This document shows, one piece after another, positions 36,610-39,600 of a stretch of DNA of 41,071 nt. The stretch comes from an uncultured virus (IMG/VR IMGVR_UViG_2522125174_000001) (taxonomy: Duplodnaviria; Heunggongvirae; Uroviricota; Caudoviricetes). Below the pieces are notes generated by a model. That model saw nothing but the letters and a program-made list of their open reading frames with translations, searched no databases and was not told the DNA's origin. Within the stretch, counting starts at the first letter, position 1. Every line of letters begins with the position of its first letter. The stretch lies in the IMG/VR virus record IMGVR_UViG_2522125174_000001; one strand, 5' to 3'. Both the position numbers and the translations under genes were made by a program.

Positions 36610-39600
36610 TCATACGCCCATTCTTCCTCTACTTTCTATTGCACCCCGCTGCCTCAAGAGACGGACATTCATCTCACTTAAACCCTCTACCTCTTCAAGC
36701 AACGTATCCTTCACCGTCAACTCTCTAGACTCTAGACTACTCCAACACAATTTCAATTCATAGCCTTCTTGCTCTTTTTTAACTGCCCATTGACGCACCG
36801 AATGATCTGCGCTACCTATCACCCAATACTCTTCTCCGTCTAACTCGGTCCAGTCCACACTACGAACTGAACCACTCAACATCTGAAACTCTCTGAGACA
36901 CGCGCCCGAGATAACCTCCCACAGACGAACCGTATTGTCATCACTCCCCGAGGCGATCTGCTCTCCGTTTGGCGAATACACCACACTATAAACAGTGCCG
37001 CTATGGCCCTTCAAGGTGGGGCCGGACGCGCCGCTTTTCACGTCCCACAAGCGGACCGTATTGTCAGAACTGCCCGATGCGAGCTGCGAACCGCTCGGCG
37101 AATACTCCACGCTCAAAACAAATTCGGTATGGCCCTTCAAAGTAAGGCCGAGCGCACCGCTTTTCACATCCCACAGGCGGACCGTATGGTCACCACCTCC
37201 CGAGGCGATCTGCTCTCCGCTCGGCGAATATACCACGCTAAAAACAATACCGGTATGGCTCAAGGTCGGGCCGGGCGCTCCGCTTTTCACGTCCCACAGG
37301 CGCACCGTATAGTCCCAACTGCACGAGGCGATCTGCTCTCCGCTCGGCGAATACACCACGCTCCTAACAGGGTAGGTATGGCCCTTCAAGGTCGGACCAG
37401 GCACACCGCTTTCCACATCCCACAGGCGGACCGTATCGTCATCACCCGATGCGAGCTGCAAGCCGTTCGGCGAATACACCACACTAAAAACAGTGCCGCT
37501 ATGGCCCTTCAAGGTGGGGCCGGACGCGCCGCTTTTCACGTCCCACAAGCGGACCGTATTGTCAGAACTGCCCGATGCAAGCTGCGAACCGCTCGGCGAA
37601 TACACCACACTATTAACCCAGCCGGTATGGCCCTTCAAAGCCGGGCCGGACGCGCCACTTTTCACTTCCCACAGGCGTACCGTTTTGTCCTTACTTCCCG
37701 ATGCGATATGATCTCCGCTCGGCGAATACACCACGCTAAAAACAAGGTCGGTATGGCCCTTCAAGGTCGGGCCGGGCGCTCCGCTTTTCACATCCCACAA
37801 GCGGACCGTATTGTCAGAACTGCCCGATGCGAGCTGCGAACCGCTCGGCGAATACACCACGCTACTAACCTTGTCGGTATGGCCCTTCAAAGTCAGGCCA
37901 GGCGCGCCGCTTTTCACGTCCCACAGGCGGATCGTCCTGTCATGCCCCCCCGAGGCGAGCTGCTCTCCGTTCGGCGAATACACCACGCTAAAAACAGCAC
38001 TGGTATGGCCCTTTAAGGTCGGGCCGGGCGCTCCGTTTTTCACGTCCCACAGACGCACCGTATTGTCAAAACTGCACGAGGCGAGCTGCTCTCCGCTCGG
38101 CGAATACACCACGCTAGTAACACCGCCGGTATGGCCCTTCAAGGTGGGGCCGGGTGCCCCGCTTTTCACGTCCCACAAGCGGACCGTATTGTCAGAACTG
38201 CACGATGCGATCTGCTCTCCGAGCGGCGAATACACCACGCTACTAACAGAGCTTGTATGGCCCTTCAAGGTCAGGCCCGGCGAACCGCTTTTCGCGTACC
38301 ACAATCGTACTGTATGATCTCCACCCGCCGAGGCGAGCTGCTCTCCGTTCGGCGAATACACCACGCTATTAACCCAGTTGGTATGGCCCTTCAAGACGTG
38401 GATTTTTGTCCTGCTTGACGTGTCATACAAGCTAATCTCGCCACTCGCAAGGCCCGCCGCACAGGCTTGTCCATCCGGTGAATAGGCACACGAGCGCACC
38501 GCACTCTCCTCTTCCAGATACGCCCATTCACCAAACTGCGCCCCAGACATCTGCGCACCACTTAAATTCGCCTTGCGTAGCCAGATATTACGAAGATTCA
38601 CTCTGCTTAAATCCGACCCTTGCAATTGCGCTGAGTCAAACATCCCAAAACTTAAATCCGCTCCAGGGATCCGAACTCCCTTCAAATCCATCTCATTAAA
38701 CTGGATCCCTGCCTTGATCAAAATCGTGATCGCATTTGCTGCCCCTTGACTCATGGATTCTGTCTGCGTAGAAGCTTTGATCCATACCAGCAGCCACTTC
38801 ACCAGCGCTTTGTTCTGTTGCACTCGCTCCACTAAAAAATCCAGAATCGCTGCGTCCTCCATTAGATTAAAGTGGTTCAATAATCCTTTCTGATCGACCT
38901 GATCCGAGTCAGCCAGCGCTTTCCACAGACTCCGTATATTTTTTATTTCGTTTAATAGCTCACCTGTCGACGCATCACATCCAGCCGAATTTTCCAACTG
39001 TTCCCACACCGCACGCGCCACCAGATAATCCTGAACCGATTTATGAATAAACTGATATTGATCATCTCGACAAATCAGCGGGGCATTAAAACGTAATAAT
39101 TTAATCTTTTCATTACCTTCACTTAAAAACTTATCTCGCCAATCTTGTGCCACCGCATTAGATTCGTCATAGGCAAGCTGCTCTGAATACGTCACACGCA
39201 CCAATCCAGCTTGATACATCTCTATTGCCAAATCCTTACTAAATTTTGTGCCATGCTTAATGAAAGATTTATTTAGAAAATGAAATGCCTTCTGCTCTGC
39301 ATCAGTCAAACGAATACTTCTTAAACGATCTTGCGAACGCTCAAACCAGCTCTCTACAAACTGCTCATATAATGCGAGCCGGGTAATATGTTGACTACTA
39401 TCCTTGTATTTCTCGGCCAAAGCTGGTAATTCGCTCAAGGACAATTTGAGTAAGAAAGGATTGCGTATTAGCTCTTTGACTTCAGTTCGCTCTAAAATAT
39501 CTCCATGCTCCGCGATACTCTTTTCTAACTCTGGGTATGTGCTCCTATATTTGTTTACATATTCCTCAATCGTCAAATCTGAGAAGGGGGCAAGTTGATA

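Follow-up and report, generated by a model that had tools for sequence, protein, structure and literature searches.

The 41,071-nt stretch of DNA analyzed here (hereafter the window; IMG/VR record IMGVR_UViG_2522125174_000001, filed under an uncultured virus of the Caudoviricetes) comes from a Mycoavidus-clade fungal endosymbiont and carries on its minus strand, at 36610-40476, a gene for a 1288-aa protein resembling the NOD-like receptors (NLRs). We propose, from the sequence and its comparison with relatives, that the WD40 array of this protein is probably the ligand-recognition domain of a STAND/NLR-type NTPase that combines a NACHT domain, pentapeptide repeats and a WD40 double propeller of 14 blades. 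Across nine arrays of the family the scaffold of the repeat unit is under purifying selection, and the contact columns have dN/dS above 1. The gene's position directly beyond the lysis genes of a temperate myovirus prophage recurs in all related prophage copies examined.

The WD40 array and its hypervariable columns

The open reading frame (ORF) list, the translation and Pfam together give the order of parts along the protein as an N-terminal leader and motif, NACHT, a helical region, pentapeptide repeats, 14 WD40 blades and a C-terminal tail; all features of the gene given below are on the minus strand. The NACHT NTPase domain (aa 156-312, 39541-40011; Pfam PF05729, E 2.3e-12) scores 47.5 bits against a cut-off of 26.7, and motif positions place in it a Walker A, GVAGSGKST (aa 161-169, 39970-39996), and a Walker B of the form hhhhDGYDE (aa 234-243, 39748-39777). 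With both motifs intact and a repeat (predicted sensor) region at the C-terminus, the protein is an NLR-like STAND protein of the NACHT type. The pentapeptide-repeat linker (aa 597-648, 38533-38688) is matched by Pfam PF00805, and NCBIfam pentapeptide models score under cut-off on it. Translation and unit parsing then define a divergent first WD40 blade (aa 647-693, 38398-38538) with four strands in the structure model, twelve 42-aa units (aa 694-1195, 36892-38397), and a divergent last blade with a C-terminal tail that is conserved in the paralogue alignment (aa 1196-1288, 36613-36891). The two flanking blades and the twelve units make 14 blades; Pfam reports 12 WD40 stretches in the protein.

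Tandem Repeats Finder describes the array as 11.8 copies of period 126 with 79% matches (36917-38395), and the mean whole-unit pairwise identity across the twelve units is 0.73. Two units are 41 aa long through one-codon in-frame deletions: unit 8 (37393-37515), beside the conserved Asp ('GDDD-T'), and unit 10 (37144-37266), where 3 nt are missing and Lys-Gly has become Ser before the conserved His ('TL-SHT'). A Logan contig over the unit 10 area (37044-37289) shows zero differences, the source sample being possibly its origin. A 114-nt tract, coding for 38 aa, runs from mid unit 7 to early unit 8 (37489-37602) and again from mid unit 11 to early unit 12 (36991-37104), the two copies matching at 113 of 114 nt. 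A first-pass annotation, made from the letters of this DNA, had described a bacterial NLR with twelve repeats, had listed their residues after GHT/GHS, after the next V and around the D, and had counted two divergent capping blades for a total of 14. The NACHT score, the translation and the unit parsing bear out each of these statements. The duplicated segment that it reported is also real, at coordinates one base away from those it gave, and the deletions in units 8 and 10 escaped it.

An AlphaFold 2 (AF2) model of aa 639-1288, built from an eight-row paralogue alignment, is all-beta with four strands per unit (mean pLDDT 72, pTM 0.56) and has low confidence for the last blade and the C-terminal tail. 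Among solved structures 2YMU, 'a highly repetitive propeller structure', is the closest both in sequence and in fold; tandem-propeller proteins such as Apaf-1, Pwp2 and Aip1 come next. A predicted arrangement of two propellers, 7+7, is consistent with both the model and the best structural matches.

Numbering the 42 columns of a unit from the Thr of TLKGHT as column 1, we find that columns 7, 8, 10, 26 and 28, which are 12% of the columns, hold 464 of 1058 nonsynonymous pairwise differences (44%) but just 58 of 632 synonymous ones (9%). Selection was measured on nine arrays: that of the window gene, that of its tandem paralogue (taken from provirus record G001), those of six close paralogues of genome G049, and one of genome G002. 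A strict 42-aa register kept 97 units, with window unit 8 dropped, and arrays with fewer than eight register-fitting units were excluded from the dN/dS calculation and the tree (L012 with three, L013 with six, L021 with seven, L011 and L018 with none). Using Nei-Gojobori counting (NG86) with the Jukes-Cantor correction, and with columns set on the window gene and then applied to the eight other arrays, dN/dS at the five columns is 1.5-4.2 in nine of nine arrays (pooled 2.68; proportion of synonymous differences, pS, 0.32; of nonsynonymous differences, pN, 0.58). The other 37 columns give 0.22-0.64 (pooled 0.35; pS 0.29, pN 0.12). The N-terminal halves of the window gene and of L014, its positional counterpart beside a prophage in G049, differ with a dN/dS of 0.12 and a pS of 0.44. 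All 97 units in the nine arrays have distinct five-residue signatures at columns 7, 8, 10, 26 and 28, and Y, W and F together make up 75 of the 291 residues at columns 8, 10 and 26.

Assigned by DSSP unit by unit on the AF2 model, columns 4-8 form the d-a loop, columns 9-14 strand a and columns 26-28 the b-c turn, the remaining two loops being columns 15-19 and 35-39. The d-a and b-c loops form the top face of WD40 propellers. The hypervariable columns thus lie on the predicted top face. The binding hotspots of this face are R1 and R2, framed by a pair of aliphatic residues where strand a begins, R1-2, two residues ahead of R1, and D-1, directly ahead of the tetrad Asp (Wu et al. 2012). Because V-x-S-V fills columns 9-12, as V-R1-R2-V, and the conserved tetrad Asp is column 27, columns 8, 10 and 26 correspond to R1-2, R1 and D-1; columns 7 and 28 neighbor hotspot positions. 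In the Podospora HNWD genes, strong positive selection acts at codons 7, 9, 25 and 27, flanking conserved codons 8 and 26 (PMC1805685), and a shift of one residue turns these into columns 8, 10, 26 and 28 of our numbering, on either side of Val 9 and Asp 27. Both the concentration of variation at a few sites, which the first-pass annotation had claimed, and two of the checks that it had suggested, dN/dS across repeats and paralogues and mapping on a structure model, came out in its favor.

Uniform units with variable surface residues could also be young repeats, recently amplified from one unit, on which surface residues drift neutrally. High internal identity in prokaryotic WD40 proteins is often read as recent duplication (PMC5587647), and the other loop columns, 19 and 35-41, vary too, with pN/pS of about 1-1.5. 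We consider this explanation very unlikely, and it is already disfavored by several results. At the five columns pN is roughly double the pS measured at those codons, and dN/dS exceeds 1 in every array; among the 35 unit pairs with a scaffold identity of 95% or more, five-column pN is 0.46 against a unit-wide pS of about 0.06, so that these codons are near saturation already in pairs with almost identical scaffolds. The positions that vary are known binding hotspots, rich in aromatic residues, and a within-array pS of about 0.3 indicates that the units are not very young. It is conceivable instead that a diversity-generating retroelement, or something similar, writes the variable codons, and retroelement hypermutation of putative sensors in bacterial conflict systems is indeed known. 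However, no reverse transcriptase was found among the 48 window ORFs (PHROGs) or in the extension provided by G001, the variation is between tandem units rather than between a template and a variable repeat, and all three codon positions and all residue classes vary, which together make targeted mutagenesis extremely unlikely.

Signatures of homogenization among the repeats

Several signatures point to exchange among the units of an array. Units four positions apart share an exact in-register match of 91 nt, the longest in the array; 2000 shuffles that preserve column composition gave a mean of 33 and a maximum of 53. Within arrays the scaffold nucleotides are 0.68-0.92 identical (0.84 in the window gene), between arrays 0.53-0.82, and 88 of the 97 units have their nearest unit in their own gene. 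On a neighbor-joining tree of scaffold codons (Biopython), gene labels change 16 times, where the minimum possible is 8 and 1000 shuffles of the labels gave a mean of 69.8 and a minimum of 61. The N-terminal halves of the compared genes are 79-89% identical and strongly constrained by purifying selection; the window and L014 arrays share only 66% of their residues.

The G+C content of third codon positions (GC3) is 0.68 in the window array versus 0.41 in the rest of the gene, and it climbs with array homogeneity (rho 0.67, p 0.05, n=9). In L014, L017, L020, L021 and the window gene the N-terminal half stands at about 0.41-0.47; the most homogeneous arrays reach 0.60-0.72, and less homogeneous ones stay near 0.46-0.56. 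Raised GC3 agrees with GC-biased gene conversion, short of proof. The gene-wise grouping, the 91-nt tract and the raised GC3 all fit a recombination-driven homogenization of the array, and a 'specificity generator' driven by recombination, as the first-pass annotation had suggested, can at most be inferred from such signatures.

Exchange may not be confined to single genes. In a set of 27 proteins taken as coming from the window's own genome, the G001 paralogue included (256 units), the nearest unit is within the same protein for 155 units. The window array is closer (0.76) to the arrays of paralogues with 53-56% NACHT identity than to those of paralogues with 76-79% NACHT identity (only 0.68). 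For some paralogues the arrays thus disagree with the NACHT domains on relatedness, which makes it likely that loci have exchanged some units or swapped domains. Homogenization nevertheless appears to proceed mostly gene by gene, unlike in Podospora, where repeat similarity is family-wide. The concerted evolution that had been proposed on the Podospora model appears to hold for the signatures of recombination and less so for their reach, sharing in the window family being mostly gene-specific.

Prophage context

By PHROGs, most of the window is one near-complete temperate contractile-tailed phage (a myovirus), in the order recombination genes, CI-type repressor, terminase, portal, head, sheath, tape measure, baseplate, tail fiber, tail-fiber assembly and lysis. 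Genes for tail-fiber assembly, endolysin, holin and a spanin-like protein form its right end on the plus strand (34770-36529, PHROGs). The NLR gene is convergent on the spanin-like gene, which stops at 36529, with 80 nt separating the two stop codons, and a second NLR gene stands in tandem behind the first. Only the 3' end of this tandem paralogue is in the window (40673-41071, minus strand, from the ORF list); it is whole in the IMG/VR provirus record G001, where it encodes 1244 aa with the same architecture and a NACHT region 37% identical. G001 matches window 4692-41071 at 99.6%, with 138 differences, none of them in the NLR gene. All 138 are confined to the head-to-tail genes within 20-32 kb (at 20-28 kb except for one at 31 kb), and their clustering suggests either exchange between prophage copies or copies mixed in assembly.

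In provirus records L022 and L023 the NLR gene is likewise convergent on the lysis cassette. When coordinates were read in G049, five of five near-complete copies of the late region (88-89% identical) were followed by the lysis cassette and a convergent NACHT gene, and a sixth, truncated copy has the same arrangement. Where the tail-fiber-assembly/lysis segment of a G049 copy is 89, 89 or 87% identical, the NACHT identity of the gene behind it is 89, 87 or 87%; where the segment is at 82, 80 or 80%, the NACHT identity falls to 52, 52 or 51%. This co-variation favors the view that the tail-fiber-assembly/lysis segment and the NLR gene form one linked module. More widely, for 15 of 42 NACHT matches in G049 part of a lysis cassette, in convergent orientation, lies no more than 5.5 kb away on the 3' side, where 2000 random placements averaged 1.28 such matches and never exceeded 8. 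Several of these pieces measure only about 120 nt and derive from where the spanin-like gene ends. Such pieces, which match window 36360-36489 at the 3' end of that gene, adjoin many G049 NACHT genes, also between the genes of a tandem cluster, as though a spanin end and the NLR gene next to it had been duplicated together. The window's two NLR genes have no spanin-fragment repeat between them.

The prophage abundance of Mycoavidus is published, in a prophage paper that makes no mention of WD40, NACHT or NB-ARC, and we found no description in the literature of NLR genes placed at a prophage end. That a phage had integrated into an NLR gene and split it was considered and rejected: the right-hand gene is complete, and its stop codon faces the prophage.

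At the other end of the window the integrase gene (1650-2723) adjoins a NACHT-less relative (3-1067, minus strand) that runs off the left edge and consists of the last helical segment, pentapeptide repeats and WD40. With aa 519-766 of the main protein it shares 43% identity; its WD40 repeats are divergent and its first ~100 residues unrelated. By eye, its N-terminus had looked like an F-box, an idea dropped when Pfam gave no match at E up to 10. The integrase gene is separated from the phage early genes by a 2-hydroxycarboxylate transporter gene (3301-4635, minus strand; Pfam 2HCT, E 6e-115). The G001 record ends at window 4692, just right of the transporter gene, and the true left boundary of the prophage is thus ambiguous. 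Past both NLR genes, G001 (L004 1-8700) holds a second prophage-end remnant with a tail-fiber gene, an integrase fragment and IS3-type and IS66-type transposase genes, followed by genes for tail-fiber assembly, endolysin, holin and a spanin-like protein that share about 80% identity with window 34769-36480. At L022 2360-8110 and L023 2992-5541 the prophage-end NLR genes are adjoined by large ORFs whose N-terminal domain is of an ARM-like repeat type (Pfam ARM_5), and L022 has a further integrase gene beyond them. Within the NLR gene, plus-strand ORFs at 37003-38016 and 37811-38317 are antisense by-products of the repeat.

The receptor family, its relatives and its possible function

With the NACHT part as query, 594 proteins among the 7999 scored matched at E of at most 0.001, and the 120 best of these are almost all named by their sources as proteins of Mycoavidus or of Mortierellaceae fungi; Mycoavidus appears in that list as 'Glomeribacter sp.' and 'endosymbiont of Mortierella elongata'. 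Among 61 sampled genomes of the family to which G002 belongs, seven have NACHT matches, all of them small (1.9-2.8 Mb), with 24, 25, 1, 6, 6, 23 and at least 42 matches per genome. Megablast of the gene to E. coli genomes, and of the prophage to a phage collection, returned nothing. Six or more canonical units are present in 86 of 121 family proteins; in 58 of these 86, scaffold identity is at least 0.70 while five-column identity is 0.21, and one of the 58 is labeled Actinomortierella wolfii. A side observation concerns L018 (G049:C1:480600-485600), a 1163-aa paralogue at a prophage end with a NACHT domain 87% identical, in which a second NACHT-like module follows the pentapeptide repeats where the WD40 array would be.

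The family itself, its transfer to Mortierellaceae and the high internal repeat identity of bacterial NLRs are already known. NACHT-PPR-WD40 receptors of Mycoavidus and their transfer to Mortierellomycota were published by Ciach et al. (2024, Evol Lett, PMC11291939), so that the Mortierellaceae link suspected in the first-pass annotation was in the literature; the window protein, from the same organism group and with the same three-part architecture, is a member. The accessible portion of that paper covers architecture and transfer and contains no hypervariable columns, selection test, concerted evolution or prophage position. The NWD/HNWD proteins of Podospora anserina (het-e, het-d, het-r, nwd; PMC1805685) share with the window protein a NACHT domain, very homogeneous 42-aa WD40 units, concerted repeats, and selection at two codon pairs flanking a conserved Val and Asp. 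They differ from it in that the window protein is bacterial and prophage-linked, has a pentapeptide-repeat linker, shows no repeat-induced point mutation (RIP) and lacks HET, for which Pfam gave nothing at E up to 1 in aa 1-660. The array had been called HET-E-like; it does carry the HNWD signature, but without a HET domain the protein is NWD-like.

Among prokaryotic proteins, the window mean of 0.73 passes the 0.7 threshold that defines the Highly-Repetitive WD40 proteins of Hu et al. (2017, PMC5587647), whose variable sites also fall on predicted hotspots. The Nostoc chain of 2YMU is a bare propeller of 577 residues, whereas the window array is joined to a NACHT domain and varies far more at the hotspots. 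Dyrka et al. (2020, 10.1101/2020.01.06.895854) found 80-90% internal identity in the WD and TPR repeats of bacterial NLRs and suggested a fungal-like diversification regimen for multicellular bacteria; here that suggestion is tested on the arrays of a unicellular endosymbiont. The antiviral STAND, bNACHT and Avs proteins of bacteria, which according to a preprint include Apaf-1-like proteins with WD40 sensors (PMC12803255), resemble the window protein in having a STAND NTPase, a C-terminal repeat sensor and a location on a mobile element; the window protein has no recognized effector domain, and its sensor consists of near-identical units. Judged by this analogy, its working principle is likely similar.

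The N-terminus begins with a Ser/Pro-rich leader without an acidic residue (aa 1-33, 40378-40476), conserved among paralogues, followed by a conserved beta-rich motif (aa 43-68, 40273-40350) with many invariant columns in paralogue alignments. A profile of this motif gave 36 matches in G049. Because 35 of them are inside frames of at least 892 aa, this search revealed no small amyloid-signaling partner of the HET-S/NWD2 or BASS type carrying the motif.

We hypothesize the following mechanism. Within the array, and on occasion from one locus to another, gene conversion or unequal crossover would reshuffle the blades and hold their scaffold uniform, and selection would keep the contact residues diverse, such that each paralogue presents a different binding surface. 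A ligand bound to the variable surface would release oligomerization of the NACHT domain, with a putative output by way of the short stretch at the N-terminus. The gene moves together with a prophage present in many copies, which makes conflicts of mobile elements with the cell seem to us the most likely arena, and the protein may tentatively be compared, by analogy, to sensors such as Avs and bNACHT; taken by itself, we rate this last step at slightly less than even odds.

A number of points weigh against this proposal. The five hypervariable columns were chosen by eye for amino-acid variability on the window gene; NG86 counting is near saturation at them (pN about 0.6); and recombining repeats violate tree-based assumptions, the dN/dS values here coming from a counting method. 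The GC3 of the array could instead be inherited composition. The array is identical in G001, the only near-identical record, which says little because G001 may be the same strain. Four public runs, none of them holding RNA, yielded fragmented short-read contigs with cross-mapping joints from paralogues, which carry no information on unit number, variation or expression. On the side of function, aa 1-133 match no Pfam family and contain no recognizable effector domain, and an AF2 model of aa 1-172 is uncertain (pLDDT 44, residues 1-70 under 50), and shows helices ahead of the P-loop and, with low confidence, a hairpin where the motif lies; the best Protein Atlas score on aa 1-150 is 0.84, with none of 0.9 or above. 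PADLOC (2023 library) gave no match to an NLR or Avs model, its sole matches being of the WD region to HEAT-ARM_XIII and a weak one to PDC-M16A (E 0.0034). An obligate endosymbiont inside hyphae may also rarely meet phages from outside. Finally, the search for attachment (att) sites found no core, since direct repeats of at least 13 nt between the integrase side and the right side were only a 20-nt NLR homology and a 14-mer, and no tRNA gene was found; the NLR gene could therefore lie beside the prophage and not inside it.

The receptor could instead be directed at the fungal host. On this view a type III or another secretion system would export some or all members of the family, and the variable WD40 face would bind fungal proteins, thereby manipulating the host or engaging its own NLR-like machinery; the protein would then not serve as a sensor within the bacterial cell. 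The leader begins 44 of 121 family proteins, even where their NACHT domains are only about 50% identical, and type III N-terminal rules hold for 41 of those 44 versus 7 of the 77 others. These rules of thumb are weak heuristics derived for plant pathogens, the tandem paralogue lacks the leader, and a 140-kDa NTPase would be an unusual secretion substrate. A YscC-family (type III) secretin scores above cut-off in four of four related genomes, secretion systems are reported for Mycoavidus, and the NACHT-less pentapeptide-WD40 relative is found within the same window. The bacterium lives in fungal cytoplasm, and homologues 45-50% identical occur in Mortierellaceae genomes, a role in symbiosis being left open in the published account (PMC11291939). 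The prophage position and the STAND architecture suit a cell-autonomous sensor equally well, and we regard action on the host as unlikely. Recognition of self and non-self between endosymbiont lineages or mobile elements, comparable to heterokaryon incompatibility and with paired polymorphic partners, is suggested by the evolutionary signature that the array shares with the Podospora het-d/het-e arrays and by a family that is large and polymorphic. Such allorecognition or kin discrimination is nonetheless highly improbable, as the protein has neither a HET nor another death domain and the motif search in G049 returned long, NLR-size frames in place of a motif-bearing partner gene.

Returning to a sensor in conflicts between mobile elements and the cell, the results on the array and on the prophage can be joined into a more speculative picture, to which we give limited credence and which is on balance improbable. 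The NLR genes would be cargo of a multi-copy temperate myovirus, carried in a swappable right-end module of tail-fiber assembly, lysis and NLR genes that the phage copies, moves and recombines, building up a repertoire of 24 to more than 42 genes. The phage would then also be a plausible vehicle to Mortierellaceae, and the leader-bearing part of the family may act in the fungal cytoplasm.

The fungal-style test of diversification is positive on nine arrays from three genomes and one provirus record, and we did not find such a test in earlier literature. Mycoavidus, with a small genome and dozens of such genes, offers a workable system for the origin of repeat-receptor repertoires and for what they recognize. 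The recurrent placement at a prophage end ties the receptor repertoire to mobile-element conflict and suggests a route of spread, also toward the fungal host. If the joint picture is true, the phage would be the engine of the endosymbiont's NLR repertoire.

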